Origin: a virus
Virus genome (UHGV): UHGV-2031204
Direction: 5' to 3' (one strand)
DNA: 64,000 nt
Shown: in pieces, positions 15,063 to 42,800 of the stretch
How positions within the stretch are numbered: the first letter of the stretch is position 1
How the letters are laid out: each line of letters starts with the position of its first letter
Notes under the pieces: generated by a model
Told to the model about the DNA's origin: nothing
The model's input: only the letters and a program-made list of their open reading frames with translations
The model's database searches: none
Program-made: the position numbers and the translations under genes

Positions 15063-16214
15063 ATGCGAAATATTATTTCTAAACCAGGACATGTCAAAAT
15101 CCTAAAAGAACTGATGGACAGATGCTATAATCGGACTTGGTCACTACCAAGCTTAACCATCGAGTCTTCATTACAACGTGAGTTGTTTGGTTATAACTTG
15201 GGCTGTTGTGTACTTACTGAATACAATGAGATTATCGCGCCTGTCGATGTCTGTACTTACGATGAAGAAATTGAAGGTTACAAGTTCGCGGTTTACACAA
15301 ATTGTGGACTAAATTACCGTAAACTCGTTGTTAGGGAAAAGAGTAGCAGCCGGAAGATTATGTTTAAGGTCTTCCCAAGTGGTAAAGTCAGTAATTTATG
15401 TTTTCAGCTTGAGAAAGTGCCCTTTCACGGTGCGGACATTTTAACTAAACCGGAGCTCGCGTTATTAAGCGGGTTAATTGGCTTTGAAGCAAAAACCATC
15501 AAAGTTGAGCAGGAACTTACACGAAACGATTTCGGGTCAACTTGGTACGAAAGTTTCTTCCGCTACGAAATGTTAAGTGATAAAGCTATCAAACTCACTT
15601 ACCGTTCTACCGACGACATCGTTTACCACATTTTAATTAGCGGCGAACCCCACCAGATTATTGAAGTCGAAGGAGAAAAATCCGTGCGTACCTTAAAAGA
15701 TGAATTAACTGATTTTGTTAACAAAATTGATAACGTGGGTATCAGTGAATTATTATTCCCGATTCAACATCCAGAGTTGCTTGACGAGAAATGTGAAAAC
15801 ATGATTATGGCGGTGCATTTACTTCCTGACCATCTTGCTATCTACCGTACACTTTCTAAGAACCAACTTAAAGTGTGGTGTCTGTTAAAAGGTCTTTTAA
15901 CAGAGGCGGGGTGGTCGTGTAGTGTAGATGTTAACTGTGAAGGAGTTGCGTTCTTCATCACAATAGGCAATCGTAGTTTTTCTGTCGATTTACCTACTCG
16001 CAGCTATTACGATTTCTTCCCGACCGCAGAAGGACGTACTGAAAAAGAACCCGCATTACTGCTCAGTGCTGAGGAGTCCAATGCGTTAATGGCGAAACTG
16101 AAGGCGAAAGACGAGAAGCTGGATGCTTTACATCTACCTATAATCGGGAAAGACTACGGTTGGGCTGACGTGCAAAAATACGGCAGTCAGCTGTTGTTTG
16201 TTGCTGACCTCTAA
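15063..16214 (+). CDS. hypothetical protein, tandem paralog family member 3 (383 aa)
   Basis: Track ORF with AAAGGAGAG RBS; C-terminal YDFFPTAEG...SNALMAKL...YGWADVQKYGSQLLFVA. Confidence 0.65.
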   Translation: MRNIISKPGHVKILKELMDRCYNRTWSLPSLTIESSLQRELFGYNLGCCVLTEYNEIIAPVDVCTYDEEIEGYKFAVYTNCGLNYRKLVVREKSSSRKIMFKVFPSGKVSNLCFQLEKVPFHGADILTKPELALLSGLIGFEAKTIKVEQELTRNDFGSTWYESFFRYEMLSDKAIKLTYRSTDDIVYHILISGEPHQIIEVEGEKSVRTLKDELTDFVNKIDNVGISELLFPIQHPELLDEKCENMIMAVHLLPDHLAIYRTLSKNQLKVWCLLKGLLTEAGWSCSVDVNCEGVAFFITIGNRSFSVDLPTRSYYDFFPTAEGRTEKEPALLLSAEESNALMAKLKAKDEKLDALHLPIIGKDYGWADVQKYGSQLLFVADL

Positions 16215-16240
16215 TAAGTGAAAATACACTTTCTCTAACT

Positions 16241-16267
16241 GCCGCGCTTTAGTCGCGGCTTTTGTTA
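16241..16267 (+). terminator. intrinsic terminator
   Basis: Stem GCCGCG/CGCGGC then TTTTGTT. Confidence 0.5.
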
Positions 16268-16281
16268 AGAAGGAAATAGAA

Positions 16282-17055
16282 ATGAAAGTCCATTTAGACG
16301 ACATCTTTAAAACCGAACCGTATATGATCGAAGGCCCGCTATCATCACTACTATTTGCCGATAGATTAGATCGTACGCTGCAATTACAATCGGTCGAAAC
16401 TGCACCCGTTGACGATGTAGAGCGTTACGAGCGCATCAACTATACGCGTGGTGAGTATCGTCGCTATAAGCCAAATTCACTAAGCATCAAGCTTTGGAAT
16501 GTGAGCACAGGTAAAGTATTAACTTATCGCGCTGTTGGTAGTTATTACATTCAACAAGCCAAAGAGTGGTTAGAAAAAGTTAAAGAACTGAACTTCGATC
16601 TACTGAGCAAAAAACTGCGCGATCATAACGCCAGTTTGCCGATACGTAATTATTTCTCCACGATTGAAAATAGTCGTTGTTTCGTTTCACGTGAAACCAC
16701 GATATTACCTGGGGATGATGTTCAGACAACACTAAAAGATGTGGTTGTGAAGAAAATCTTTCATGAATCTGAACACGTTGGATTTCGTATCTATTTAACG
16801 CATAAGAGACCATTTACCGTGATTCACGTTGTTACCGCACCCGAAGGCTCAGCGATTATTCGTGAACTTCCTGATGCTCGAGACCGTTGCCCTAATGAGC
16901 CGCTTTATTTAATGTCAGGAACAAAATCAACCGCGTTGATGTCCCGTTACAGCATGTTAGATGTTGTTGACGCTGCTATGAAACTAGGTTGGAAAGAAGT
17001 GCAGCAACATGGTAAACAATTGCTGTTTATTGCCGATGTAAAACTTAATCAATAG
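16282..17055 (+). CDS. hypothetical protein, tandem paralog family member 4 (257 aa)
   Basis: Track ORF; C-terminal STALMSRY...KLGWKEVQQHGKQLLFIA; N-terminal MKVHLDDIF. Confidence 0.65.
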   Translation: MKVHLDDIFKTEPYMIEGPLSSLLFADRLDRTLQLQSVETAPVDDVERYERINYTRGEYRRYKPNSLSIKLWNVSTGKVLTYRAVGSYYIQQAKEWLEKVKELNFDLLSKKLRDHNASLPIRNYFSTIENSRCFVSRETTILPGDDVQTTLKDVVVKKIFHESEHVGFRIYLTHKRPFTVIHVVTAPEGSAIIRELPDARDRCPNEPLYLMSGTKSTALMSRYSMLDVVDAAMKLGWKEVQQHGKQLLFIADVKLNQ

Positions 17056-17067
17056 TGAGGTGGTACC

Positions 17068-17646
17068 GTGTACCGATTAATAGAAATGCGAAAAGACGTT
17101 TGGTTGGAAAACCTCGTCGATGGGGAGCTTGAGGGAATAGAGCTTTCCTTACCAGAAAGAGCGGACACGGTATTGGTCTTTCTGATAAAACAGGCAGCGA
17201 AGGAACCGGTAGGAATCTTCAGCGTGGACTATAAAGACCCACGAGGGATTCATTTACGGAACATTTGCAGTGGTTTAGAAAGCTTACCGGCTAATCCGTT
17301 CTTAAACTACGCAAAACGTAAACTCCAGCCAGGGCAACATCTCTGGGTAGTTCTAGCGCCTGATACACGCATTATACGTGACGACCAGACTGCGTTTGTC
17401 CAAGCAACGAAAGTCAGTTTGTACAATCCTAATGCGGATCGTACCGATATGCCGTTTACAATCACCTTAGAAGACGATGGAACGCAAGAGGGTATTGAGG
17501 CAATTACGGAATTAGTAAACTCTTATCCGGTAGCATCTATTGAGTTAGAAAACCCAAACCGATTACCGTTGGGTGATTTACTCGAATGGATTGAGCTGAA
17601 TACCGAGTTCCTCATTAACTCCCGGCAGTACCGGTTCGATGTATAA
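17068..17646 (+). CDS. hypothetical protein (192 aa)
   Basis: Track ORF, GTG start with GAGGTGG RBS; followed by strong terminator. Confidence 0.55.
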   Translation: MYRLIEMRKDVWLENLVDGELEGIELSLPERADTVLVFLIKQAAKEPVGIFSVDYKDPRGIHLRNICSGLESLPANPFLNYAKRKLQPGQHLWVVLAPDTRIIRDDQTAFVQATKVSLYNPNADRTDMPFTITLEDDGTQEGIEAITELVNSYPVASIELENPNRLPLGDLLEWIELNTEFLINSRQYRFDV

Positions 17647-17650
17647 CATC

Positions 17651-17683
17651 GGTGGGGGTAAACCCCCACCTTTTATTTTTTTG
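17651..17683 (+). terminator. intrinsic terminator
   Basis: Stem GGTGGGGG/CCCCCACC followed by TTTTATTTTTTTG. Confidence 0.7.
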
Positions 17684-17705
17684 TTCGTTAATATTAAAAA
17701 TAATT

Positions 17706-17731
17706 TCAGATATATATTACTTAAGTGAGAG
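17706..17731 (+). promoter_or_regulatory. candidate phage promoter motif (copy 2; contains TATATTAC)
   Basis: CAGATATATATTACTTAAGTGAGAG matches 13422-13447; directly after a terminator and ~45 bp upstream of 17777; overlaps hairpin TTAAGTGAG...CTCACTTAA. Confidence 0.45.
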
Positions 17732-17776
17732 TACAAAAGCACTCACTTAACGAAAACCATTTTAGGAGAACTAAAG

Positions 17777-18148
17777 ATGAAAAACGAATTATTCAAAGAC
17801 CCGTTTGTTGTATTAATGATCGTTACTCGCGCTGCCACTAACCCAGAAAACCTGAAACGTTTACTTACTAACGAAGCATACCTTATCGAACAGCGTGACG
17901 CGCAGTTAGCCAAACCACACGCTGAAGGCCAGGCGAAAGACCTTATCTCTATTTTCCGTAACGAAGAATGGCGTAAAAACAACGAGCTGTCCGACAACCT
18001 GACGGTTGCAATTGCAAAACTCTTGACACTGTTCAATCTTGACAAAGACATTAACCAAAGCCTTTCTACAGAAGAGCGTCTGGAAATGATAAGAGGTATC
18101 GGAGATAGTTATACACAGATTAAAGCATTACCCAACACAGTTATTTAA
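17777..18148 (+). CDS. hypothetical protein (123 aa)
   Basis: Track ORF with AGGAGAA RBS. Confidence 0.55.
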   Translation: MKNELFKDPFVVLMIVTRAATNPENLKRLLTNEAYLIEQRDAQLAKPHAEGQAKDLISIFRNEEWRKNNELSDNLTVAIAKLLTLFNLDKDINQSLSTEERLEMIRGIGDSYTQIKALPNTVI

Positions 18149-18194
18149 TTTCATAATTTGTGGGAACTTCCCCATAACCCGAAGGAGCATTTCA

Positions 18195-18656
18195 ATGAAA
18201 ACCTTTATCACTTTCTTAATAACTATTTTAACTTTCGGCCTCAATACTGCACACGCCGCTATCAACAGCTGGGAACAAATACAAAACCCTGGCCAGGCAG
18301 TTTACGAAATTGAAGACACCGCCGGAAACGGACTGTCTATCAACTGTGACACTGAAACTGCGAATCGCAAATTTTACGGTCGCATGGTTTGGTATTACGG
18401 GGAACCCGTAGGTGCAACTAACGCTGAAGATAACACGATGGATATTGTCGTAAACGGCAAGACCTATAACATCCCTACCGTGGACGGTAGTGACAAAGCA
18501 GAACACGCTTGGGTTGCTTTCGTTAATGCTATCGGTAATGCCAAAACTTTCAGTGTGAGTATCAATGGTAACGATGCCGCTAACTTTACCGTAGAAGGCG
18601 AACGTCTGTCTGAAACTTTCTTCCAGAACTGTGGACACACCCGTCCTAACAAATAA
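18195..18656 (+). CDS. small secreted protein 1 (153 aa, predicted signal peptide)
   Basis: AAGGAG RBS; N-terminus MKTFITFLITILTFGLNTAHA is a classic Sec signal with AxA site; mature part has 2 Cys. Confidence 0.6.
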   Translation: MKTFITFLITILTFGLNTAHAAINSWEQIQNPGQAVYEIEDTAGNGLSINCDTETANRKFYGRMVWYYGEPVGATNAEDNTMDIVVNGKTYNIPTVDGSDKAEHAWVAFVNAIGNAKTFSVSINGNDAANFTVEGERLSETFFQNCGHTRPNK

Positions 18657-18684
18657 GTATTAATCTTTTTTAGAGTGCGTGAAA

Positions 18685-19071
18685 ATGAATATCAGAACTA
18701 TACTTTATACTATCATTATTTTCTGTGCGGTCGGAATTACTGGCACTTATGCTTTCGGTGATTCAGATGTCCGTTATTACGAACCGGCTCCTGACTCACC
18801 GATTATCAACCCGGATGAGACGCCTACGTTAATGCGCAGTTTCGGTAAACTGCAAGTTTATCGTTTAGTGCGTGGTGAAACCTGTACGGGTTTACTCATT
18901 GCTGACACCCGTGCACAAGTCTACCAACGTCTAACCGATATCGCCTGCGAACAACCAAAAGTAATGTCAGTTAGTATCCATCCGCTATCAGTTGGTAACT
19001 ATACCGCTGTGGACTTCTTTCACAACGCCGAATTAATCGGACGCGTTACCTTAAATCGTCCTGCCGAATAA
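18685..19071 (+). CDS. small secreted protein 2 (~128 aa, predicted signal peptide)
   Basis: Track ORF from GTG 18679; ATG at 18685; hydrophobic N-terminus IRTILYTIIIFCAVGITGTYA; Cys in mature part. Confidence 0.5.
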   Translation: MNIRTILYTIIIFCAVGITGTYAFGDSDVRYYEPAPDSPIINPDETPTLMRSFGKLQVYRLVRGETCTGLLIADTRAQVYQRLTDIACEQPKVMSVSIHPLSVGNYTAVDFFHNAELIGRVTLNRPAE

Positions 19072-19089
19072 TCTAAAGGAGTAGTTACA

Positions 19090-19575
19090 ATGAAACGTTT
19101 ACATACACTGATGTTCTTTCTGGTTTTCTTGTTTATCGGTGCCACGCCAACTGTAGATGCGGCCTCCGTAGACGAATTGCTTACCTGCGATGGAAACGCT
19201 TGGGAAGGTCAGCCAAATGCGTGCCCAAACATCAACGACTTGTACGATACCGATAAGTCGTTTAAAGCCGTTGTTGATAAAACACTAGACCCCGTAGGGC
19301 TGGATGGTATGTTCGGCTCTAAAGGTTACATGGATGGCCCTGGCGGTAACATGTATCCGGTAAACATCAACAACAAAATCTGGATTGAAAGCGGCGGTTG
19401 TAAAGCTAACGCTTGTGGTTGGGAATACATCGTAACGCTATACAACCCACACACTAAGAAACTCGTCGGCTATTACTACAACATCGACCCCGGTTACCTG
19501 ATTTGGTTCGGTGATATCGGTGTTGCCGAATTCGCTTACCTGGTTAAGAAATACGTAGAACAATCTAAATACTAA
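19090..19575 (+). CDS. small secreted protein 3 (161 aa, Cys-rich, predicted signal peptide)
   Basis: AAGGAG RBS; MKRLHTLMFFLVFLFIGATPTVDA signal; several Cys in mature part. Confidence 0.6.
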   Translation: MKRLHTLMFFLVFLFIGATPTVDAASVDELLTCDGNAWEGQPNACPNINDLYDTDKSFKAVVDKTLDPVGLDGMFGSKGYMDGPGGNMYPVNINNKIWIESGGCKANACGWEYIVTLYNPHTKKLVGYYYNIDPGYLIWFGDIGVAEFAYLVKKYVEQSKY

Positions 19576-19586
19576 GGACTTTTATC

Positions 19587-19997
19587 ATGAAAACTATCAT
19601 TAATACTCTTCTCATTGCAATGGCTGTTCTGTTCTCTGTCAACGCTACAGCAAAAACAATACAGTTGCCAGACAATATTAAGTACGTCAATAGCACCGAT
19701 GATTTCTATTGTACGGAAATTGACGGCTTGTACTGTCAGGCAAAGAGCCTGTTTAAATACAAAGGTAGCAGATACGTATTCATCGTTGAGCAAGGTGGTG
19801 CCTGGTGCTACGACAGCCCAATGTCCGTACTCAACCTCGAAACGTGGAAGGCTCAGCGTCTCGAATACAACGACAAACGTCTGTGCTCTGGTAATAACAA
19901 ACCATTCTTCGAAGTCGTAGATGGTGTGCCAATGGTAGGGATATTAGACACTTCGGAAAAACCTATCGTTGTAGCTATGGATAAACTTAAAATTTAA
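19587..19997 (+). CDS. small secreted protein 4 (136 aa, predicted signal peptide)
   Basis: MKTIINTLLIAMAVLFSVNATA signal; Cys pairs in mature part. Confidence 0.55.
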   Translation: MKTIINTLLIAMAVLFSVNATAKTIQLPDNIKYVNSTDDFYCTEIDGLYCQAKSLFKYKGSRYVFIVEQGGAWCYDSPMSVLNLETWKAQRLEYNDKRLCSGNNKPFFEVVDGVPMVGILDTSEKPIVVAMDKLKI

Positions 19998-20007
19998 GGA
20001 GTAACTC

Positions 20008-20397
20008 ATGCGTCTCGTCTGCGTTTTAGCATTCTTCTTCTCCCTGAGTGTAGCAGCATCTACCCAAGTTAACGATTTACTGCTAACCCCAAACAACAAT
20101 ACCGATTATCAGTACAATCCTCCGGGGTTTGAAGTTTGCGAAGTCGGTGAAACAATCTGCCAAGAAGTCGGCGCAGACGGGCGCTATATTCTGGTAAAAG
20201 CTGACGGTGGCACAATGTGTCCCGCAGGTTATTACTTTCTGCTCGATTCCGTCGCAAGAGAGGTTCTTCCTATCACCACGAAAACGTGCGACCCTACCGT
20301 TGTCTTAACTCTCGCTAAAAGTAAATCTCGCGACCGTTATCTGATCGTTATCGAAGAACGGGGCAAGATGGCGGGTGCTATTGAATTAGATCATTGA
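20008..20397 (+). CDS. small secreted protein 5 (129 aa, predicted signal peptide)
   Basis: AAGGAG RBS; MRLVCVLAFFFSLSVAAS signal; 5 Cys in mature part. Confidence 0.55.
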   Translation: MRLVCVLAFFFSLSVAASTQVNDLLLTPNNNTDYQYNPPGFEVCEVGETICQEVGADGRYILVKADGGTMCPAGYYFLLDSVAREVLPITTKTCDPTVVLTLAKSKSRDRYLIVIEERGKMAGAIELDH

Positions 20398-20407
20398 GTG
20401 TAGTCTT

Positions 20408-20436
20408 GACCCCGGTACGTCCGGGGTCCTTTTTAC
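20408..20436 (+). terminator. intrinsic terminator
   Basis: Stem GACCCCGG/CCGGGGTC followed by CTTTTTAC. Confidence 0.6.
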
Positions 20437-20463
20437 GACATGTTTACCTAAAGGAGTATTAAA

Positions 20464-20940
20464 ATGCAATTATCTAACGTTTACCAAGCTGCGCAATTTC
20501 ATCATGACCTGTCGGCTAAACCTGAACAAATTCGCCACAACTTAACGGTGGCCTGGAAACTGCTACGTATCGCCGAAGCCTCGCGCCTTAACGATCAGTC
20601 GACGATTATCGAAACGGTGCGCACACTACATCCAGTCGACCTGGAAACAATCTGGACCTTTGATTTAACCCGAATTTATCACCGTCGTTTTAATGCGGCA
20701 GTTGATGCAATCCGTCCTTACTTTCACCACCTGCGAACAACACGCGAAAATGATACCGCACTTGAGTGGGTGTTGGTACAAAGCGTATGGAGCGACTACA
20801 TTTATCTCCTTTCTTTAGAGACGGGTGAATGTATCGTTGCTAACGAAGTTTTTTCAAGTAACGCAGAAATGTATCGTTCCTACGCGACGATTAAAGGTGA
20901 AACACAACCTATTTTATCACTCACGCACTTAGGGCTGTAA
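20464..20940 (+). CDS. hypothetical protein (158 aa)
   Basis: Track ORF with AAAGGAG RBS; terminator after stop. Confidence 0.55.
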   Translation: MQLSNVYQAAQFHHDLSAKPEQIRHNLTVAWKLLRIAEASRLNDQSTIIETVRTLHPVDLETIWTFDLTRIYHRRFNAAVDAIRPYFHHLRTTRENDTALEWVLVQSVWSDYIYLLSLETGECIVANEVFSSNAEMYRSYATIKGETQPILSLTHLGL

Positions 20941-20948
20941 TTAGCCCG

Positions 20949-20977
20949 GCCCCGTTTACTCGGGGCTTCTTTTTTTG
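20949..20977 (+). terminator. intrinsic terminator
   Basis: Stem GCCCCG/CGGGGC followed by TTCTTTTTTTG. Confidence 0.6.
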
Positions 20978-20996
20978 ATCTAAAAGGAAAGACCAG

Positions 20997-21605
20997 ATGA
21001 ACGAAATTACATTAGTTCGTTTTCTTGAAGCGATGCAAAATGCAGAGCGCTTTTCGCACGCGCCTTTATTCATTGACTTAATGGAAGAAGAAGTAGAGGG
21101 CTTCCTGGCATACCCTCGCTTACGGGAGTATTTTAAACGTAAAACACCGACTGCTTACGAAAAGTTGGTTTACGCGCTTGAGAACAGTACAACATTGTTA
21201 ACGTCGCCTTTTAAGGCGTTGGAGGCTTTAGACCCGGCTGGTACCACAAGTATCCCACAACGTGTTGTGTTCTACTATATCGACCACGATCGAATTAAAG
21301 CCGATGTTGTTAACTGGATCTCTGAAAACGCAGTTCCTGAAACACGCACTTTTAATCTCTGTCCTGTAGAAGAAGGATGGAAGGTCGGTAGCCACTATTC
21401 TTACCCGTACCAATCCATTAAATCGCCGTTTTTATACCCGGTTTATCTGGATGATGTTACACCTGGAAATTGTATCCCGGTAACAAATCTGATCTGTACA
21501 TTGACGATGGAAGTCTTAGCCACAAAGGCGGGACAGGTTTGGGTAGAAAACACGAAGAACGTCGATTATTGGACTTCAATGGGTTATCACCTGTACACCA
21601 AATAA
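20997..21605 (+). CDS. hypothetical protein (202 aa)
   Basis: Track ORF with AAAGGAAAG RBS; terminator after stop. Confidence 0.55.
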   Translation: MNEITLVRFLEAMQNAERFSHAPLFIDLMEEEVEGFLAYPRLREYFKRKTPTAYEKLVYALENSTTLLTSPFKALEALDPAGTTSIPQRVVFYYIDHDRIKADVVNWISENAVPETRTFNLCPVEEGWKVGSHYSYPYQSIKSPFLYPVYLDDVTPGNCIPVTNLICTLTMEVLATKAGQVWVENTKNVDYWTSMGYHLYTK

Positions 21606-21610
21606 CGTTT

Positions 21611-21653
21611 GGGAGAACCTTCGGGTTCTCCCTTTCTTTATTTTTTTCTTTTT
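21611..21653 (+). terminator. intrinsic terminator
   Basis: Stem GGGAGAACC/GGTTCTCCC followed by long T-tract. Confidence 0.7.
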
Positions 21654-21683
21654 ACACCACACTCCGTCTTTATGGAGGTGGGT

Positions 21684-24188
21684 ATGCTAAAAGTTGAACG
21701 CATTATACTCAAAGGTTTTACGGGGATGGGATTACATGAAATTGAAACTTTCGATTTCACTATCCAGTCTCCAACAACAATTATCCTAGGTGGGAACGGT
21801 TGCGGGAAAACCAGTCTACTGTCTGTATTCTTACCCTTAGCACCGGCTAAAACTGAATTCAGAGACGGCGGTTCTTACACGAACTACTGTTTAGTTGGCG
21901 ATCAACGCTATCGTTTCAAAGTTGCCCGTAAAGGCAACTCTTTGGTTTGCGATATTGAGAACCTGACCACGGGGACAAAGATCGTCGAACAAGGCAATGC
22001 GAAAGTCTACAACTCCCGTGTTGAAGAAATCACGGGTATTACGAAAGAGATTAAAGAATTATTAAATGGTGAGGTGTTGTTAACTGATGCGGGAACCGAA
22101 CTACGTCGCAAGTGGTTTTACCGTTTAAGTACCTCTGACCTCACTTACGCGTTAGGGTTTTATCAACGTTTACGTAAAAACCTTACTGCCTTAAATGGGG
22201 GGATTGAAATCACCAGCCGTAAGATCGCCGAATTACGGACGCGTGTTATTGAGAACGAGGAAGAACGTCAGCAATTAGCGACGAGATTAAAAGGTTTGGA
22301 ATCGGATTTACGTGAACTGAACCGAGAAATCGAACAGTTGCCAGGATTAAATCGCGGCGTCACCATCGAAACAATCCAAGCGTCATTAAACAGCTTGGGT
22401 CCAACCATCGACGCAATATTACAACATCGTGGTGGTCTGCCTACTGATGAACAGATACAGGTCGCACGACAAAACGAGGCGACCGCCCGCGAAGCCGTCG
22501 TGTCTACTGAAACAGAGGTATCGATGTTGAATAAAGACTTGTCGCTATTGATGGATGAGTCGACACGACAAGACTACCTGATGCGGAATCACGAAGGTCT
22601 CAAGAATACACTGGCACGTTTACGTGAGTTACTTACCAAATGGGACACCGAGCATCTCTTTCCGGGTTTATTTAACGACAACGTCAATTTAGACCAACTT
22701 CGTGCGGCTACCGATGCGCGTGTCTGGGGGCAACGGTTAGGAACAACACTGGACGCAATTCATTCAACCGAAAAACTCAATGTTTTGGAAGAACGGCTTC
22801 TGGTGATGGATCAAAAAACCGCAGGGTTGCGGGATAGACTCCAGCGAGTGGAGAACGTTTTACAGAATTTAAATCACGAACGTAATCACTACTTAGAAAC
22901 AGCGGAAGTGGATTGCCCGCAGTGTCGGTTTAAGTTCCGTCCTGGTGTTACGCGTTCTTTACCTGAACTTGAGTCTTCGATTCGCGGACAACAACAGCAG
23001 CGCACGGAACTGCAAACGCAGTTAGAGACCTTATTACGCGATCGTGTTGAATTAGAATCTGATGTAACTTATATGCGGCAGGTTCGTGAGATTGTACTGA
23101 CGTATTCAAAGGACCCGGTATTGAGCATGTTCTTTAAGCGTTTGCAAGAACGTAACGTTTTCACAGAATCACGCGAGCAGTTCGGGAGTCTATGCGCAGC
23201 GTTTGACAGCGAGTTGTACTCTGCTATTGAGTACCATGAAACCCGTCAACGGTTAGTGAAGGCGGAAAAAGAATGGCAGGATGCCGTGGCGGCCGTTGGT
23301 AACGTCGATGGTGCTTTACAACAAAAAATCGCTTTCCAACAGTCACGATTAGGTAAAGCCACAGAGATGCTCTCAATGCGTCGTAGAGAGCACGAACTGG
23401 CTAACACGACACTTACCTATCTGGTGAATGTTAAACGTGCTGTAGATGATTTCAGTGCGTTATTCGAACGGTTAGAGAGTGATGTTAAGGTTACGTTGAC
23501 AAATACAGTCGTCGAGGAACTCTTACGTACACGAGAAGGGAAGCTGGATGCTTTTACAACCGCACGCGAACGTTATCGTCAAATGGAAAATGAATTGAAC
23601 CAGCTCAACAGTTTGGAACGCGAACTTGCTGACTTACAAGCCCAGCAGTTCAATAACAAACTGATGATTCAAGCCTTCTCGCCAGAAAAGGGTGTACTTA
23701 GAAAGTATTTTTACAACGCTATCGTTAGAATCACAGAGTTAATGACGCGTTATATCGAACAGGTCTGGACGTACCCCATGCGTGTTATGCCTTGTGATCT
23801 CACTGACGGCGATTTGGATTATACTTTTCCTGTCCAGCTAAAAACGCATCCTGAGCCTGTTCCTGACGTGCGTAAAGGGTCAAAGGCGCAGCGTGCGATA
23901 TTTAATCTGATGTTCAGACTGACTGCGTACAAAGCGCTGAAGTTGCATCAGTTTCCGTTGCTTTTGGACGAGCCTTCGGAGGGTATGGATGAGGAGCACC
24001 GTAACAACCTGGTCGGCTTTATTAAAACGTTAGCAAACTCAGGAGATTTTTCACAACTGTTGGTAGTCTCCCACGAAGCTGAGGTTCATTCTAAACTTAA
24101 TGAAGCATCGTACTGTGTCATCGAACCGGAAGGGGTGACATTACCTGCGGTGTATAACGAAGGAGTAAAAATTGTTTATGCAAACTGA
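21684..24188 (+). CDS. Rad50/SbcC-like ATPase (~834 aa from ATG 21684)
   Basis: N-terminal Walker A GGNGCGKTS; long coiled-coil-type middle; central CPQC zinc-hook-like motif; C-terminal Walker B LLLDEP and H-loop VVSHEA; track ORF starts at 21609 but GGAGGTGG RBS precedes ATG 21684. Confidence 0.7.
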   Translation: MLKVERIILKGFTGMGLHEIETFDFTIQSPTTIILGGNGCGKTSLLSVFLPLAPAKTEFRDGGSYTNYCLVGDQRYRFKVARKGNSLVCDIENLTTGTKIVEQGNAKVYNSRVEEITGITKEIKELLNGEVLLTDAGTELRRKWFYRLSTSDLTYALGFYQRLRKNLTALNGGIEITSRKIAELRTRVIENEEERQQLATRLKGLESDLRELNREIEQLPGLNRGVTIETIQASLNSLGPTIDAILQHRGGLPTDEQIQVARQNEATAREAVVSTETEVSMLNKDLSLLMDESTRQDYLMRNHEGLKNTLARLRELLTKWDTEHLFPGLFNDNVNLDQLRAATDARVWGQRLGTTLDAIHSTEKLNVLEERLLVMDQKTAGLRDRLQRVENVLQNLNHERNHYLETAEVDCPQCRFKFRPGVTRSLPELESSIRGQQQQRTELQTQLETLLRDRVELESDVTYMRQVREIVLTYSKDPVLSMFFKRLQERNVFTESREQFGSLCAAFDSELYSAIEYHETRQRLVKAEKEWQDAVAAVGNVDGALQQKIAFQQSRLGKATEMLSMRRREHELANTTLTYLVNVKRAVDDFSALFERLESDVKVTLTNTVVEELLRTREGKLDAFTTARERYRQMENELNQLNSLERELADLQAQQFNNKLMIQAFSPEKGVLRKYFYNAIVRITELMTRYIEQVWTYPMRVMPCDLTDGDLDYTFPVQLKTHPEPVPDVRKGSKAQRAIFNLMFRLTAYKALKLHQFPLLLDEPSEGMDEEHRNNLVGFIKTLANSGDFSQLLVVSHEAEVHSKLNEASYCVIEPEGVTLPAVYNEGVKIVYAN

Positions 24189-24357
24189 TTGGTTCCGTCG
24201 TTTTATGGACGCGGCGGGGTTTGGTTTCATGTCCATTCTAGCGGTTCTTTATGTCATGTTTTGCGTGGTGATGATTTTATGGGTAGTTTCATCTTATCTG
24301 ATTAAACTATCGTGGGGTTCAATTTGGCGTCAACGCGAATGCGAATGGCGGAATTAG
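24178..24357 (+). CDS. small membrane protein (~60 aa)
   Basis: Track ORF 24172..24357 overlapping SbcC stop; strongly hydrophobic core FGFMSILAVLYVMFCVVMILWVVSSYLI. Confidence 0.4.
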   Translation: MQTDWFRRFMDAAGFGFMSILAVLYVMFCVVMILWVVSSYLIKLSWGSIWRQRECEWRN

Positions 24358-24523
24358 GAGAGGGAATATGGTTGTAGGGGTTCTGTTAACACTTGGCTCG
24401 TTGTGGTTAATTGGTAAAGGTTTAAACTGGCTGATTAAACGTCACCGTTGGGCATTCGAAGATTAACCACCCAAATAATCCAGAAGATACCCTCCGGTGT
24501 GAGGGTATTGATAGGAGCAGAAA

Positions 24524-24652
24524 ATGACCACGATAAACGCTACGAATGTAGCGATATCCGCACTATACGACGCGGAACTTTCATGGGGTGGGTTAATAAT
24601 CACCACAGCCATATTAGCCGCTGCGGCTTTCGTCATCGCGCGTTGGTTTTAA
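24524..24652 (+). CDS. small membrane peptide (42 aa)
   Basis: Not in track (<60 aa); AGGAG RBS 6 nt upstream of ATG; hand translation MTTINATNVAISALYDAELSWGGLIITTAILAAAAFVIARWF has one TM helix; the 84-aa track ORF 24448..24702 is in another frame. Confidence 0.35.
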   Translation: MTTINATNVAISALYDAELSWGGLIITTAILAAAAFVIARWF

Positions 24653-24677: not shown

Positions 24678-25127
24678 TTGCAAATGGAAATTTATTTGTT
24701 GAACGCATCTTCTAAAGTCGGCGAACGACAAGCTGCCGATTTACTCAAACTGCACTACCGTTACTTAGACCACCAGGCCACGTTACTGAAAATCAAAATG
24801 TCGGTGCCGAAGTTAAATGCGCGACAGCTGATCGAAGGTAACTGCATAGTTCTGGTGTATCAGGATGATGTCGCGGTAGGATACTGTAGTTATCGGAATC
24901 GTAACGGTTCACTTAAGATACGTTCGGTATACGTGCTCCCAGACTATCGTCAACGGGGTGTAATGAAAGAGATTTTCAAAGCAATTGCAGCTGATGAGGT
25001 TTTCGGCGAGATTGTTACTGGCATGTATGCGAAATGTAAAGAAGCAAAAGAGTATTTCATCCGACGCGGCTATCAAGCGGTTTACTCACGCGATCGTGAG
25101 TGGGTCGATTTTAGCAAAACATTCTAA
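24678..25127 (+). CDS. GNAT-family N-acetyltransferase (149 aa), putative
   Basis: Size and motif VYVLPDYRQRGVMKEIF fit the GNAT acetyl-CoA-binding motif A region. Confidence 0.5.
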   Translation: MQMEIYLLNASSKVGERQAADLLKLHYRYLDHQATLLKIKMSVPKLNARQLIEGNCIVLVYQDDVAVGYCSYRNRNGSLKIRSVYVLPDYRQRGVMKEIFKAIAADEVFGEIVTGMYAKCKEAKEYFIRRGYQAVYSRDREWVDFSKTF

Positions 25128-25788: not shown

Positions 25789-26349
25789 TTGTCGAGCTAT
25801 CAATCGGCGGTACACGTTTTAATGCTACACATCAGCTCCGGGCGTTTCGTTATGTTAACGGTACGTAAAGAATCTGAAATTGGTAACGATCTTTTTAATG
25901 CACCCGAAGACTATAAAGTCGTTACCATTAACTGCGTAGGAGCGATGGGTCGCGGTATTGCACTCGCGTGTCGTGAACGCTACCCCAACCTTTACCAGGA
26001 TTATCGTAAGCGGTGTCGTGAAGACGAAATTAAGATTGGTAGCGTTTACGTTTACTCTGACGAAAAGTGTATCTTGCTCCCCACGAAAACCCATTGGCGC
26101 TTAAAGTCCCAGGTTTCTTATGTTACTGCGGGCATTACCGCACTAGCAGACTGTGCTGAGGATCTAGATACCAGCGTTGCTATCCCTCCACTGGGAATGG
26201 CAAATGGGTGGTTAGATTCCTGGGAAAGACAAGAAATCTTTTTGTGGCTTTACAAAAAACTTGAACCGAGGAGACAACACTACACGTTATACTTACCCGA
26301 TAGTTTGTACCGAGAAGCAGAGTCATTAATTCCAAACTCTTTTAAATAG
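25789..26349 (+). CDS. macrodomain protein, TARG1/DarG-like (start uncertain: TTG 25789, ATG 25822 or ATG 25852)
   Basis: NCVGAMGRGIALACRERY matches the C..MGAGIA motif of TARG1/DarG-type macrodomains; SVAIPPLGMANGWLDSWERQEIF matches the second conserved block (IGCGLDRLQWENV). Confidence 0.55.
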   Translation: MSSYQSAVHVLMLHISSGRFVMLTVRKESEIGNDLFNAPEDYKVVTINCVGAMGRGIALACRERYPNLYQDYRKRCREDEIKIGSVYVYSDEKCILLPTKTHWRLKSQVSYVTAGITALADCAEDLDTSVAIPPLGMANGWLDSWERQEIFLWLYKKLEPRRQHYTLYLPDSLYREAESLIPNSFK

Positions 26350-26422: not shown

Positions 26423-27148
26423 ATGTATAAATCCAACTGGAGAAACAAAATGTTTCGTATCTTCTTTCTTTTACTGGTAACACTTTTCGCGTTTAACGCA
26501 CAGGCGTCAACGTCAACGCCACATTCTAAACATCAGCGTGAGTTTACACAAATCCAACATCGGTTCGAAAAAGTCAGTCCGTTAATTGTGGAAATCTCAC
26601 GAAAGCAAGGCGTTGATCCTAAGCTGATGATTACGCTGATTTATCGTGAATCGCGTTTTGATCCCAAGGCTTACAACAAAAGCTCACGAGCACACAGCCT
26701 GGTACAGATGCTTCCAAGTACCAAGCGTAATCTGCTAAGGCTTTATGGAAAAGAATTAGGTCTTAGTCAGAACGCCGATTTGTATAATCCGCGTAATGCT
26801 GTTTTGCTGGCTGCCGCGTATGTTAAACATCTTGAAAAGGGGTTAACCAAACGACTCAAACGCAAGCCCACCATGGCTGAAGTTGCGTTAGCTTACCACT
26901 GGGGTGAAAGTGGCGCTCACACGCGAATCAAAAGCAAATCTCGAGCAGCACAACGAGAAATGGCAGGCTTTATGAAAGACGCCTCGTTCTATAGCGCGAA
27001 AATCGATGTGCCTGTTGTTGTGGGCTCGGCCCCACGTCAGCTTGCGTTTGCGAAGAAAACACCACGTCAGATTCAATTGGCGGAAGTTAGTAAAATTTGG
27101 GATACGATAAACACGAGTTTTCCAATCAATAGAGGAGTTACCCTTTGA
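26423..27148 (+). CDS. secreted lytic transglycosylase, GH23/SLT domain (start 26423 or 26450)
   Basis: Signal peptide MFRIFFLLLVTLFAFNAQA; SLT motifs YRESRFDP, SLVQMLPST, AAAYVKHL. Confidence 0.7.
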   Translation: MYKSNWRNKMFRIFFLLLVTLFAFNAQASTSTPHSKHQREFTQIQHRFEKVSPLIVEISRKQGVDPKLMITLIYRESRFDPKAYNKSSRAHSLVQMLPSTKRNLLRLYGKELGLSQNADLYNPRNAVLLAAAYVKHLEKGLTKRLKRKPTMAEVALAYHWGESGAHTRIKSKSRAAQREMAGFMKDASFYSAKIDVPVVVGSAPRQLAFAKKTPRQIQLAEVSKIWDTINTSFPINRGVTL

Positions 27149-32919: not shown

Positions 32920-33654
32920 ATGACCTACCCAAAAATTATCACCCCGTACACACCGACGTTGGTTATTGGTGCCGATGCAGAAACCAAATCGTTACGCCCC
33001 GATGCTTATCTGTTGAGTGCAGGTTTAGTGGCTTTTGACGTTCCTACATTGAAAATGGTTGGTTCCTCATACATCCGTATCGACCCTAACGATCCTAAAG
33101 CAAAAGCTATTTTCCACGAAGACCCACAAACCGTTGGTTGGTGGGAAGGTAAAGGCGAGCCTGAATACGCACCATCTCGTGAAGCGTATGAAGAAGCCTG
33201 GGGTGGAACAACAGCATTGCCTGATGCTCTGTGGGCGATGCAAAAATGGCTCGGGGAGATTACCGCAAAACATGAGTTTGTTATTACCATGCGTGGTCCT
33301 GACTTCGATGCGCCGATTTTCATGAACGCTTTCGCACAGTGCGATATTCCGCCCGGGAAGTTCCGTAAATTTAGTGCGTTGGATAGCGATCGTACCGCAG
33401 AGCGTTTAGCCTTTGCGTTTGGTTTCGAACCTGACTTAACTGTAGAGCAAATTTACTGGACGCGCGGTAAGCCCGCGTTTGAGCACCACGCTATGTGGGA
33501 TGCAGCAAAAGAAGCCTACACTACGGCACGTATCTATCATCTCGCTTTGGTCACTCGCCAATACGGGTTTGAACGCGCCAAAGCCTGTCACGAAGAACTG
33601 AAAACTGGCGAGTATGTTGCGCCGCAGATTCGTGATCAATTAACCAGGGATTAA
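32920..33654 (+). CDS. DEDDh-type 3'-5' exonuclease (DnaQ-like), 244 aa
   Basis: Exo I motif VIGADAET near N-terminus; Exo III-type HHAMWDA near C-terminus. Confidence 0.55.
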   Translation: MTYPKIITPYTPTLVIGADAETKSLRPDAYLLSAGLVAFDVPTLKMVGSSYIRIDPNDPKAKAIFHEDPQTVGWWEGKGEPEYAPSREAYEEAWGGTTALPDALWAMQKWLGEITAKHEFVITMRGPDFDAPIFMNAFAQCDIPPGKFRKFSALDSDRTAERLAFAFGFEPDLTVEQIYWTRGKPAFEHHAMWDAAKEAYTTARIYHLALVTRQYGFERAKACHEELKTGEYVAPQIRDQLTRD

Positions 33655-33656
33655 GA

Positions 33657-35177
33657 ATGAAGAACGTTGATGTTGCAGTAATTTACACGGATGGTAGCCA
33701 TTTGACCTCCCCGCTCGGTACAGGAGCGGGGATTCATGGATACTTATTTAATCGTGAAACGATTGAGGATGGTCGGGTTTACCGCCATCCTTCTATTCCT
33801 GAGGGGATTACGACGTCAGGATACCGCCAGATAAACAAGGATGAAAAACTTCCACCTTTACCAGAAACCGTGGAATTTATCGACGGTGTTGTTCCTGTAC
33901 CAAAAATGTCACACTCTGATGTTGCAGAACTCGTGGCTTTCCTGACCGTCTTCGAACACGCCCCCTTCGTTGCTAAAAACTATGTTATCTATATCGACGC
34001 ATCTTACGTTGTCAACACGTATAACGATTGGATTGATGGTTGGGCAGCACGCGGCTGGCGTCGTGCGGACGGTACACCCATTGCGAATTTGGAATTAATC
34101 CAACGGATGTGGGAGGTTAAACAGCGGTTAAAGAAAGAAGGGAAAGGTGTTCGTGTCCTTAAAATTAAAGGTCACTCTGGACGTTATGGAAACGAGCGTG
34201 CTGACGAGTTAGCACGGAAAGGTTCAAGTATTTCGGCTCGAGGTGAGGGGCTAGACTATACACCGTATTGGTCAAAAGACGAGATGCCTGAGGAAGATCA
34301 GCAACCAGAAGTTGTTGGTGAAGGTCTCAATTTGTCCGCTTTTCCCGATATCTGTGTTACGAAGTTCTGTTACCCGATGGTGAACGAACCCCACCCCACC
34401 GTTACGGTTAACGGTAATAAACTTTATTACATGTTCGGTGGGAACCATGCAAAACAGAAGGACGATATTGTCTTCGTTGGTAAGTACATTCCAGACGCAC
34501 AATTCTGCGTAATGTTTACCAAAGAACCATGGGATAACGTATACGAGTTGGTAAATACCCACTCTGCGAAAGCGTGGGAAGGGGTGCCCCGTTTACGTCA
34601 ATTTGATCCCATCGCCGTTGTTTTTAACTTATTCGTAAAGCGTAAAAAGTTCGCAGAAGCCGCAGCTAATGGCATTCCTATCGATCGGATGCATTTTAGC
34701 GAAGACAAAAACCTGTGGATGTTTGAAGATCTTTCGATTACACGAATTCTTCGTCCTGCACTATTGTCTTATCGATGCATTACGATTCGTGATGAGCTTG
34801 CGGGTTGGTTACGCGATGCCATGGAGGGGAAAAACTCAGTAGTGATGAACGACATTACTGACATGCTTTACGATGAGAAAGGTAAGCCGAAGAAAGATTT
34901 TTATCGTAACGTAGATAAAGGTTTTGACGTAACCATCCAGATCCCTGGTAGCAAAAACAAGGTTAAAACTATCCTTACTCGAGGTATCGACATACCGACG
35001 CGTACGGAAATCAACCGTATGAAAGAACCAGAAGGGCGATTCTACGTGGCGGTACGGCGTCCAGAACGGCAGTATATCGAATATGCGTTGGTTTATATCG
35101 GGGAAAAATATCATGGGTTGTGGTGCGGCTATTATTCAAACAAACGAATACTGACGGATAAGGAGCTTGAATGCTGA
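33657..35177 (+). CDS. RNase HI-domain protein with ~300-aa C-terminal extension (506 aa)
   Basis: RNase HI catalytic motifs VAVIYTDGS, VIYIDASYV, KIKGHSGRYGNERADELA; ~50-aa insertion within the domain; unassigned C-terminal region. Confidence 0.65.
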   Translation: MKNVDVAVIYTDGSHLTSPLGTGAGIHGYLFNRETIEDGRVYRHPSIPEGITTSGYRQINKDEKLPPLPETVEFIDGVVPVPKMSHSDVAELVAFLTVFEHAPFVAKNYVIYIDASYVVNTYNDWIDGWAARGWRRADGTPIANLELIQRMWEVKQRLKKEGKGVRVLKIKGHSGRYGNERADELARKGSSISARGEGLDYTPYWSKDEMPEEDQQPEVVGEGLNLSAFPDICVTKFCYPMVNEPHPTVTVNGNKLYYMFGGNHAKQKDDIVFVGKYIPDAQFCVMFTKEPWDNVYELVNTHSAKAWEGVPRLRQFDPIAVVFNLFVKRKKFAEAAANGIPIDRMHFSEDKNLWMFEDLSITRILRPALLSYRCITIRDELAGWLRDAMEGKNSVVMNDITDMLYDEKGKPKKDFYRNVDKGFDVTIQIPGSKNKVKTILTRGIDIPTRTEINRMKEPEGRFYVAVRRPERQYIEYALVYIGEKYHGLWCGYYSNKRILTDKELEC

Positions 35178-41303: not shown

Positions 41304-42800
41304 ATGGCAGGCCCAACTAAGCAAGTTATCGGTGAAGTAATTCGTCCACGTTTTAACGTTTACACCATCATGGATCATGCCTTAGGTAACTACGAAAAAG
41401 GTGAAGATGGTTTGTACTACCTTAACGGTGGTTTTGCCCACATCATGGGTTTCGCAGGTCGCGGTAACACTTTTAAATCCACCTTGTTAGATTTCTGTAT
41501 TTTCCAAATCCTGCAACGTTATAAAGCAGAGTGGGGTTCTAAGTACGATACAGAAGTGTCAGCCGCCCTCGATCGTTTAGAAACTGGGTACATCTCTGCC
41601 ATGAACGCCAACGGTATCGACGACGGAACGTCCGTACTGGAGCTTATCCACGAAGGTCGTTATAACCTGGTCGGTTCTGACGTAATGCCTGGGGAACAGT
41701 ATTACAGCGATTATATTCGTGATGAAGTTGAAAAACGCTTCAAGCAGTATATGTCTGGTAAAACCCGCGTAACGCCGTTCCCCGATCCGGTTCGTCGTAA
41801 GTTAAAAGAAATCCTGGACCCCTGGCTTTATTCTATCGACTCCCTGTCAGAGTGGCATTCCAGTTCGCTGGAAGACAAACACGCAAAAACTGATATTGGG
41901 GATTCTGATCAGAACATCCTGAATGCCCACGATGCCCTGCAAAAGTCGAACATGATGAGCCGCTGGCCGTCTGCGTTTGCACGCGGTGGTTTTTACATGG
42001 GCTTCGTGGCACAGATGGCCGATGACTCTGGGAAAGCGATGGCAGGTGGCCGTCAGGCACAAAAAGCAAATGCGAAAATTCTTGACGATGCCAACGACGA
42101 TTTAAAATTCGCAGGTATTCCTCGCCGTCAGCTTAGCTTTTTAACAAACTCTTTTATCGTCGCGACGAAATCAGGGGAACTGAAGAAAGACCAGAGCTAT
42201 AACGCGCAGACCGGTGTTAACGAAGAACTTTATCCGACGTCACGCTCTAAGGCGATGAATGCTTCGGTAAACGACTTGAAGATTATCACCTTTACTCAGT
42301 ATCGTGCGAAGGGCGGTCACACTGGTGTGAAATTCCAGATGATCTTCTCTCAGGAAATGGGTCTGTTATATCACCTGAGCCTGTGGCACTATTTAAGCGA
42401 CACACTGAAGAAGTCAGACTTTGGTTTCACGTCAAGCGGTAGCGGCGGCTCCATCAAAGAACTGGACATTCTACCTGGTGTGAAATTCCAACGCACGACA
42501 ATCCGTGATATGATTTCTGATAACGCGCGCTTACGTCGCGCTTTAGAAATCACGGCGGCAATCGCGTATATGCAAAACAACTACCATCGTCTTGAAATGA
42601 AGTATCATCTCAGCATGGGTGAGATTTACAAAATGATTGACGAGAAGTGGGACTGGAATGAAATTCTGGACAACACGGTAGAATACTGGATGTTTAAAGA
42701 CCAGGAAACCAAAGGTGGTAAACGTACATTGACTGCACGTACTATTCTGGGTATGGCTGTCGATGGGCTAGAACCGAAGTTCCTGACGAAAAAGAAATAA
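41304..42800 (+). CDS. RecA-fold ATPase, UvsX/RecA-like (498 aa), tentative
   Basis: P-loop-like FAGRGNTFKST resembles UvsX Walker A (AGPSKSFKSN); downstream LYSIDSLSEW resembles RecA/UvsX Walker B (VFIDSLG); larger than canonical UvsX. Confidence 0.4.
   Translation: MAGPTKQVIGEVIRPRFNVYTIMDHALGNYEKGEDGLYYLNGGFAHIMGFAGRGNTFKSTLLDFCIFQILQRYKAEWGSKYDTEVSAALDRLETGYISAMNANGIDDGTSVLELIHEGRYNLVGSDVMPGEQYYSDYIRDEVEKRFKQYMSGKTRVTPFPDPVRRKLKEILDPWLYSIDSLSEWHSSSLEDKHAKTDIGDSDQNILNAHDALQKSNMMSRWPSAFARGGFYMGFVAQMADDSGKAMAGGRQAQKANAKILDDANDDLKFAGIPRRQLSFLTNSFIVATKSGELKKDQSYNAQTGVNEELYPTSRSKAMNASVNDLKIITFTQYRAKGGHTGVKFQMIFSQEMGLLYHLSLWHYLSDTLKKSDFGFTSSGSGGSIKELDILPGVKFQRTTIRDMISDNARLRRALEITAAIAYMQNNYHRLEMKYHLSMGEIYKMIDEKWDWNEILDNTVEYWMFKDQETKGGKRTLTARTILGMAVDGLEPKFLTKKK

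Follow-up and report, generated by a model that had tools for sequence, protein, structure and literature searches.

A Rad50/SbcC-type ATPase of a phiKZ-like chimallivirus and its predicted SbcD partner, encoded far away in the genome

Does a Rad50/SbcC-like ATPase whose gene has no Mre11/SbcD nuclease gene beside it still form half of a nuclease complex, or does it serve another role? The question is raised by an 834-aa protein encoded in the stretch analyzed here, 64,000 nucleotides of the virus genome UHGV-2031204 (hereafter the window). The window belongs to a ~225-kb chimallivirus related to the Erwinia phages Asesino and phiEaH2 and to Salmonella phage SPN3US, and the gene order around the ATPase is conserved in Asesino and SPN3US. 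A megablast search with the locus found no match in the phage collection, in PLSDB plasmids, or in complete E. coli genomes, and the phage was therefore identified at the protein level. We conclude that the 834-aa protein is very probably the SbcC subunit of an SbcCD (Mre11-Rad50) complex that this phiKZ-like, nucleus-forming jumbo phage encodes for itself; SPN3US gp186 and phiKZ gp165 are its orthologues. The gene and its neighbors are as follows.

20997-21605, + strand: conserved 202-aa protein (PHROG 9964) immediately 5' of SbcC; not Mre11/SbcD
21674-21678, + strand: Shine-Dalgarno sequence GGAGG, 5 nt 5' of the SbcC start codon, read from the sequence
21684-24188, + strand: SbcC/Rad50-type ABC ATPase, 834 aa (phrog_77; Rad50 profile and fold matches)
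24172-24357, + strand: 61-aa single-pass membrane micro-protein, 59 aa if counted from the ATG at 24178 (phrog_16515, E 2.6e-4)
24368-24466, + strand: 32-aa hydrophobic ORF beginning MVVGVLLTLGSLWLIGKGLNWLIK, absent from the ORFs listed in an earlier note on this DNA
24524-24652, + strand: 42-aa single-pass membrane ORF ending in ARWF (hydropathy 2.1-2.45), with AGGAG 6 nt upstream

The 834-aa protein matches the PHROG profile phrog_77 at E 1.7e-91, its MLKVERI start is common to the SbcC homologues in our alignment, and Rad50 proteins are the best PDB matches of the family profile. In the AF2 model (pLDDT 80), the chain runs from head through coil, hook, and coil back to head, comprising an N-terminal head lobe (aa 1 to ~150), an ascending coil (~154-405), the zinc hook, a descending coil (~426-694), and a C-terminal head lobe (~700-834), with the coil helices lying antiparallel between the two lobes. 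The top Foldseek match of this model is C. thermophilum Rad50 of the MRN complex (7zr1_C, E 1e-16). Scores against Pfam SMC_N (34.4 bits, cut-off 40 bits) and the NCBIfam Rad50 model PRK01156 (41.5 bits, cut-off 847 bits) miss the curated cellular thresholds. This sets SbcC apart as a distant branch specific to phages; it is not an equivalog of cellular Rad50. A Pfam PIN_12 match at aa 589-682 (E 0.025) lies inside the coiled coil and was taken as spurious.

The ATPase and hook motifs are listed below, with invariance scored across 18 SbcC homologues down to 30% identity.

21789-21812, + strand: Walker A/P-loop GGNGCGKT, aa 36-43 (G36, N38, G39, G41, and K42 invariant)
22914-22925, + strand: zinc hook CPQC at the coiled-coil apex, aa 411-414 (C411, C414, F418, P420, and G421 invariant)
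23877-23891, + strand: signature (C-loop) variant GSKAQ, aa 732-736 (G732, S733, A735, and Q736 invariant)
23958-23993, + strand: Walker B LLLDE, aa 759-763, and D-loop region PSEGMDE, to aa 770 (D762, E763, D769, and E770 invariant)
24069-24074, + strand: H-loop SH, aa 796-797 (S796 and H797 invariant)

The model places CPQC between helices 365-405 and 426-474, and alignment and model both show a short turn of ~20 residues with the CxxC at the apex, without the globular hinge of SMC and MukB proteins. In the family profile, the Walker B/D-loop region aligns to that of P. furiosus Rad50, as do the residues after GSKAQ to its post-signature stretch. The earlier note had credited the ATPase with Walker A, a coiled coil, a CPQC hook, and Walker B/H-loop, all of which the motif alignment, the AF2 model, and the Rad50 profile confirm. 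It had also called the signature motif degenerate. The canonical form in Rad50 is LSGGE/Q, as in P. furiosus, and T4 Rad50 carries the canonical motif. GSKAQ keeps the serine and the glutamine, with K-A in place of the diglycine, and G-S-x-A/S-Q is the invariant form across the clade (GSDSQ in phiKZ). The description thus stands as far as the missing diglycine goes, but the motif has not decayed, since it is invariant in the clade and retains Ser and Gln. The GSxxQ signature is a conserved family trait and probably no sign of an inactive ATPase.

Where, then, is the nuclease? No SbcD/Mre11 was found in the 64-kb window by tblastn with SPN3US SbcD or by profile search, and none lies immediately outside the ORFs inspected for the earlier note. 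The IMG/VR contig IMGVR_UViG_3300045988_113438, which is 94.9% identical to the window at the nucleotide level, has its SbcC gene at ~150.9-153.4 kb and its SbcD gene at ~19.1-20.3 kb, so that ~131 kb separate them in one direction and ~86 kb in the other; this 95%-identical relative is the one contig on which both genes were seen together. The window itself is 100% identical over 22.5 kb to the 225,020-bp ENA contig ERZ27262435:k119_40093. The SbcD family has the phosphoesterase motifs DxH, GDLxD, GTPSHD, MHG, and GHDH in alignment, and among solved structures the family profile finds T. maritima Mre11 (3qg5, E 1.7e-9) as well as E. coli SbcD (6s6v). Pfam Metallophos does not detect the clade's SbcD in a single-sequence scan; the protein is too divergent for such a search, so scanning the genome for a "calcineurin-like phosphoesterase" would give a false negative. 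Two further candidates for this genome's SbcD, P0033 and P0014, belong to other chimallivirus lineages, and the right cluster is P0004/P0154. A tblastn search with SbcC matched 290 phage records, all of them phiKZ-like jumbo phages; SPN3US SbcD also matched 290, with nearly the same distribution of organism names. Members of both 90% clusters, E1L24_22495 and E1L24_21185, occur in one Salmonella Braenderup assembly. The predicted SbcD partner is thus very probably encoded elsewhere in the same genome. Of the two explanations first offered for the solitary ATPase gene, a partner encoded elsewhere is the one that holds, and there is no need to invoke a diverged SMC-like ATPase with a different role.

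This layout is already known. The two genes are separated in SPN3US, Stratton, and phiKZ as well, and a 2016 study assigned SPN3US gp27 as SbcD and gp186 as SbcC and described the genes as "drastically separated" in SPN3US, phiKZ, and relatives (PMC5105663). SPN3US gp186 and Asesino gp207 are orthologues of the window's protein over their full length (58% and 70% identity, respectively; 834-836 aa) with the same motifs, and both phages likewise have an upstream gene (202/208 aa), an overlapping downstream membrane ORF, and a distant SbcD; they differ from the window in sequence divergence only, with genomes of 240-246 kb compared with ~225 kb for the window's phage. The SbcC-like gp165 of phiKZ belongs to the same family and shares the architecture, with a CPSC hook and the GSDSQ signature, and lies ~113 kb from the SbcD-like gp65. 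What we find is a trait already documented for phiKZ-like phages, the scattering of functionally paired genes such as sbcC and sbcD over the genome, and it adds little beyond annotation. It also means that in such genomes a missing neighbor need not be taken for a missing partner.

We infer the binding of SbcC to SbcD, the DNA substrates, and any role of the flanking small proteins. SbcC would dimerize at two sites, the CPQC zinc hook and the ABC heads, the latter engaging each other in an ATP-driven manner. The base of its coiled coil would be the binding site for the C-terminal region of SbcD, a nuclease supplied from a gene ~86-131 kb away adjoining divergent DNA polymerase and RNA polymerase genes. 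Acting on DNA ends and hairpins, the complex may open and resect them and so feed recombination-dependent replication and repair. A UvsX-like recombinase is encoded at 41304-42800, 17 kb downstream of SbcC, and might act together with SbcCD in these processes. By analogy with the literature on its orthologues, SbcC is probably essential: SPN3US gp186 is essential and the essentiality of gp27 has been inferred (PMC5105663), phiKZ165 belongs to the core genes and gives a phenotype on knock-down (PMC12571901), and phiKZ orf165 tolerates no transposon insertions (PMC12676376).

The phage pair resembles E. coli SbcCD and the archaeal and eukaryotic Mre11-Rad50 complexes in its bipartite ABC head, antiparallel coil, CxxC hook, and Mre11 motifs in the partner, and differs in the GSKAQ signature and in scores far below the curated Rad50/SbcD cut-offs. 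In E. coli, sbcD and sbcC form one operon (PMC5105663), unlike in the window's phage. The gp46/gp47 (Rad50/Mre11) pair of T4 has the same proposed role, the processing of ends for recombination-dependent replication, and its SbcC subunit is likewise essential; its genes are clustered, unlike those of the chimalliviruses, with two small ORFs between them, and T4 gp46 is smaller (63.6 kDa versus ~96 kDa here), has a linker ~300 residues shorter, and shows no similarity at the BLASTP level (PMC5105663).

Could the ATPase instead work without a nuclease? A stand-alone SMC-like protein acting in compaction, segregation, or packaging in the phage nucleus, with the distant SbcD independent of it, would be in keeping with a family in which sbcC and sbcD are never adjacent (PMC5105663; tblastn), with the non-canonical signature, and with strong Foldseek matches of the model to Smc5/6, condensin, and MukB. 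We consider this very unlikely: the apex carries a Rad50-type CxxC hook and not an SMC hinge, Rad50 is the best match by sequence profile as well as by fold, the SbcC and SbcD searches, at 290 phage records each, give almost the same distribution by organism name, and SPN3US gp186 has been shown to be essential, as is inferred for gp27 (PMC5105663). More improbable still, to the point that we give it hardly any credence, is a Lamassu-type (LmuB-like) or other defense or anti-defense SMC ATPase carried by the phage. LmuB is, like SbcC, a Rad50-like SMC ATPase of similar size, the PADLOC LmuB model matches over the full length (E 1.9e-18), and Foldseek also returns matches to Lamassu LmuACB and Wadjet JetC. 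Similarity to LmuB is nevertheless expected because LmuB is itself a Rad50 relative, and the PADLOC match falls short of the PHROG SbcC match by ~70 orders of magnitude. The phage gene has no LmuA- or LmuC-like neighbor, and a Lamassu or Wadjet system was rejected on the ground that the flanking genes have no PADLOC matches. Its orthologues, moreover, mark it as a core, essential gene of replication type throughout the family and not as host defense (PMC5105663, PMC12571901, PMC12676376).

The preferred reading, an SbcC working with a distant SbcD, leaves the neighbors to be accounted for. The 202-aa protein encoded upstream had been described as lacking Mre11 phosphoesterase motifs, and this was borne out: Pfam, profile, and fold searches found neither a calcineurin-like fold nor phosphoesterase motifs I-V in 20997-21605, and the same searches reject the idea that it is a diverged Mre11. 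A tblastn match of SPN3US SbcD residues 252-303 to 21123-21278 (E 0.86) was not reproduced by profile search and was taken as chance. No known fold resembles the protein, which is weak negative evidence, as its model is moderate (pLDDT 71) owing to a homologue search that gave only four proteins. Downstream, small membrane ORFs do follow SbcC, as the earlier note had said of "tiny hydrophobic peptides", but there are three of them and not the two it had counted (about 60 and 42 aa). The 61-aa protein has a best 19-residue hydropathy of 2.8. Its ORF starts inside SbcC, sharing the final 17 nt of that gene, and the two may thus be translationally coupled. An equivalent stands at the same place in all the relatives examined (10/10; SbcC identity 52-99%).

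Whether the 202-aa protein or the 61-aa membrane peptide might replace or supplement SbcD, as a clade-specific adaptor or membrane tether, deserves consideration, and we judge it unlikely. Synteny of both genes with SbcC extends from the window's phage to SPN3US, and the start of the membrane peptide overlaps the SbcC stop codon in each of the three phages checked. In phiKZ, though, neither the 202-aa gene nor the downstream membrane peptides, including an equivalent of the 61-aa ORF, are found beside gp165; its neighbors there, both on the opposite strand, are gp164, a structural protein, and the hydrophilic gp165.1. The 202-aa protein resembles no known fold, and it is difficult to see where an integral membrane partner would fit, as chimallivirus DNA metabolism takes place inside a protein-shelled nucleus. 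The idea of tethering comes from a comparison with gp47.1 of T4, for which a transmembrane domain is predicted within its 46 aa; the SPN3US equivalent of the 61-aa ORF is gp187, a small transmembrane ORF after SbcC (PMC5105663).

In the SPN3US/Erskinevirus-type branch, SbcC is always preceded by the fold-orphan 202-aa protein and appears to be translationally coupled to the membrane micro-protein. A related suggestion, which we offer as an improbable one, is that one or both are clade-specific accessory subunits. If so, they might localize or regulate SbcCD, for example where the ends of injected DNA would first be exposed, be it the inner membrane or the early-infection vesicle. We know of no Mre11-Rad50 complex in which such proteins have a membrane-linked accessory role. 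The 32-aa ORF has homologues of the form LGSLWLIGK..W.I.. in relatives L019-L021, L023, and L025, and the 42-aa ORF has homologues in L018-L020 and SPN3US (43 aa, beginning MTVVNSVNAA). Elsewhere in the window, a DEDD exonuclease and an RNase H are encoded at 32920-35177.

The ATPase is of the Rad50 type, with its catalytic residues intact and a zinc hook present. Walker A, CPQC, GSKAQ, Walker B and the H-loop, all listed in an earlier note on this DNA, were each found in the ORF.

Features of the SbcC locus (nucleotides of the window; residues of the 834-aa ATPase)
21684-24188, + strand: SbcC/Rad50-type ATPase, 834 aa, from the ORF reading, with GGAGG 5 nt upstream of the start
Residues 36-43: Walker A, GGNGCGKT
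Residues 411-414: CPQC
Residues 732-736: signature variant, GSKAQ
Residues 759-763: Walker B, LLLDE
Residues 796-797: H-loop, SH
24172-24357, + strand: hydrophobic ORF, 61 aa, its start overlapping the last 17 nt of the ATPase gene
24368-24466, + strand: hydrophobic ORF, 32 aa
24524-24652, + strand: hydrophobic ORF, 42 aa

In an alignment of 18 SbcC homologues with identities down to 30%, the P-loop, the hook residues C411/C414 with F418/P420/G421, the signature residues G732/S733/A735/Q736, and D762/E763, D769/E770 and S796/H797 are invariant. The protein matches PHROG 77 ("SbcC-like subunit of palindrome specific endonuclease", E 1.7e-91), and the best solved relatives of the family profile are Rad50 ATPases (3qku at E 5e-7; M. 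jannaschii Rad50, 3aux). An AlphaFold2 model (pLDDT 80) runs from a head lobe through an ascending coil of ~250 residues to a short turn carrying CPQC, then down a coil of ~270 residues to a second head lobe. In Foldseek the model comes closest to Rad50 of the C. thermophilum Mre11-Rad50-Nbs1 complex (E 1e-16), with Smc5/6, condensin, MukB, Lamassu and Wadjet ATPases ranking lower. With a CxxC apex and no hinge domain, the protein belongs with Rad50/SbcC and not with SMC proteins proper. It falls below the cut-offs of Pfam SMC_N (34 vs 40 bits) and NCBIfam Rad50 (41 vs 847 bits) and, missing these curated cellular models, therefore represents a distant phage branch.

The signature motif had been described as apparently degenerate, a view that the family does not bear out. 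GSKAQ is followed by RAIFNLMFRLT, which in the profile alignment matches what comes after the signature motif of P. furiosus Rad50, where the motif and its continuation read LSGGE-RIALGLAFRLA. Compared with the canonical motif, the serine and the acidic/amide position are retained and the diglycine is substituted. The form G-S-[KTA]-A-Q is invariant across the SbcC alignment, and phiKZ gp165 has GSDSQ; GSKAQ is a conserved, clade-wide variant and not a product of decay.

The upstream gene (20997-21605, 202 aa), in which the earlier note saw no Mre11 phosphoesterase motifs, is not an Mre11, and a Pfam search with it was empty. Within the window, neither the SPN3US SbcD (tblastn, best E 0.86) nor the SbcD family HMM (all six frames, filters off, best E 2.2) found a relative of SbcD. 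An SbcD-like protein is annotated in SPN3US at 21,020-22,168, ~147 kb from SbcC, and a separate, intact Mre11-type nuclease is encoded elsewhere in the genomes of close relatives. IMG/VR contig 3300045988_113438 (220,786 bp), 94.9% identical to the window in nucleotide sequence over 8.5 kb, carries SbcC (99% amino acid identity) within 147,922-156,423 and, on the same strand, SbcD (99% identity to P0154, the SbcD of this lineage) within 16,128-23,273, a spacing of ~131 kb, or ~86 kb if measured in the other direction. The arrangement recurs on a second contig, whose SbcC is 87% identical, one Salmonella Braenderup assembly has a member in the 90% cluster of each protein (E1L24_22495 and E1L24_21185), and the phiKZ pair, gp65 and gp165, lies ~113 kb apart. 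The first of the two alternatives in the earlier note, a partner encoded elsewhere, is thus correct.

The SbcD family shows five Mre11 motifs (I, D-V-H; II, G-D-L-F-D; III, G-T-P-S-H-D; IV, M-H-G; V, G-H-D-H). Along almost the full chain, the profile of the family matches T. maritima Mre11 (3qg5, E 1.7e-9), and it also hits E. coli SbcD (6s6v) and P. furiosus Mre11. A single sequence (P0154; locus L028:3001-4146) has no Pfam match at E <= 0.01 and scores 18.7 bits against NCBIfam sbcd, with a cut-off of 77.65. Mre11/SbcD is recovered for this clade's SbcD only by the family profile, and domain-based genome scans would overlook it.

By analogy with Mre11-Rad50/SbcCD and T4 gp46/47, SbcC would dimerise through its hook and ATP-engaged heads, SbcD would bind the base of the coils, and the complex would process DNA ends and hairpins, supporting recombination-dependent replication together with the UvsX-like recombinase (41304-42800). 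A rival reading, an SMC-like role independent of the nuclease, is unlikely given the zinc hook and the matching distributions of the two proteins: the SPN3US SbcD matches 290 phage records whose organism names are distributed nearly as in the 290 SbcC records. A PADLOC match to LmuB (E 1.9e-18) points to a Lamassu-like defence ATPase, but it reflects shared Rad50 ancestry, and the neighbours include neither LmuA nor LmuC.

The tiny hydrophobic peptides noted downstream are present, although three were found rather than two. All 10 relatives examined (SbcC identity 52-99%) have a single-pass ORF of 49-66 aa whose start lies at the SbcC stop codon or shortly before it, and most also have a ~32-46-aa ORF containing LGSLWLIGK and a ~34-49-aa ORF ending in WF. 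An LY..FC core is common to the 61-aa ORF, Asesino gp208 and SPN3US gp187; phiKZ has no equivalent small membrane ORF adjoining gp165. These ORFs are real, conserved micro-genes. Because of the apparent translational coupling, a functional tie to SbcC is possible. There seems only a slim chance that the flanking small proteins are accessory subunits.

Every element of this finding is already described for orthologues. In SPN3US, gp186 is the SbcC subunit, essential by amber mutants, gp27 is the SbcD subunit, the two genes lie far apart there as in phiKZ and relatives, and gp187 (63 aa), directly downstream of gp186, has a predicted transmembrane domain and was likened to T4 gp47.1 (Thomas et al. 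2016, PMC5105663). In phiKZ, gene 165 is listed in the core genome as an "SbcC-like nuclease", and its knock-down by antisense gave a phenotype (PMC12571901); orf165 tolerated no transposon insertions (PMC12676376).

All 290 phage records matched by the ATPase in tblastn are phiKZ-like jumbo phages, the closest being Erwinia phages Asesino, Stratton and phiEaH2 (70-71% identity), then Salmonella phage SPN3US (58%); gene order flanking SbcC is identical in Asesino and SPN3US. Other window genes, encoding large virion structural proteins, a giant tail-fibre/transglycosylase protein, RNase H, a UvsX-like recombinase and thymidylate synthase, are typical of such phages. Megablast found no match in the August 2025 phage collection, PLSDB plasmids or complete E. 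coli RefSeq genomes; 22.5 kb is 100% identical to a metagenome contig (ENA ERZ27262435:k119_40093, 225,020 bp), and NCBI nr contains the exact ATPase, labelled as a "Caudoviricetes sp." MAG protein. The 90% clusters hold 285 members for SbcC, many on ~220-226-kb contigs of Salmonella, E. coli and Shigella assemblies, and 248 for SbcD. Near-genome-length contigs (220-228 kb) of this ~225-kb chimallivirus lineage occur in many isolate assemblies of these genera and in metagenomes (loci L004, L009, L014, L034, L042); this is apparently a common jumbo phage of enterobacteria, and isolates may carry it along.

Two to three genes upstream of SbcD (~2-3.7 kb), a 535-aa gene is called in some strains as 499 (or 474) aa plus 83 aa (calls compared at loci L010, L013, L015, L017, L034, L038 and L041). 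Loci with the split call differ by ~350 nt further upstream; possible causes are an indel, a frameshift and a small mobile insertion.

The SbcC block is closely preceded by a group of small genes. Four tandem ORFs of 129-161 aa (18195-18656, 19090-19575, 19587-19997, 20008-20397) each open with a signal-peptide-like hydrophobic N-terminus (e.g., MKTFITFLITILTFGLNTAHA, MKRLHTLMFFLVFLFIGATPTVDA), and in a fifth, interspersed ORF (18679-19071, 130 aa) the hydrophobic segment lies a few residues from the N-terminus. The first ORF has a precomputed Pfam match to YfjT (PF27224), and the cluster (18195-20397) looks like a set of small secreted or periplasmic proteins. Downstream, a DEDD Rv2179c-like 3'-5' exonuclease and an RNase H-domain protein (32920-33654 and 33657-35177) and the UvsX-like recombinase (phrog_97, E 1.5e-55; no Pfam match) thus place recombination and repair functions 9-17 kb beyond SbcC, although SbcD is not among them. 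The small-peptide cluster is followed by a GNAT acetyltransferase (24678-25127), a macro-domain protein (ADP-ribose binding or hydrolase; 25789-26349) and an SLT transglycosylase (26423-27148), in an order shared with SPN3US and Asesino.
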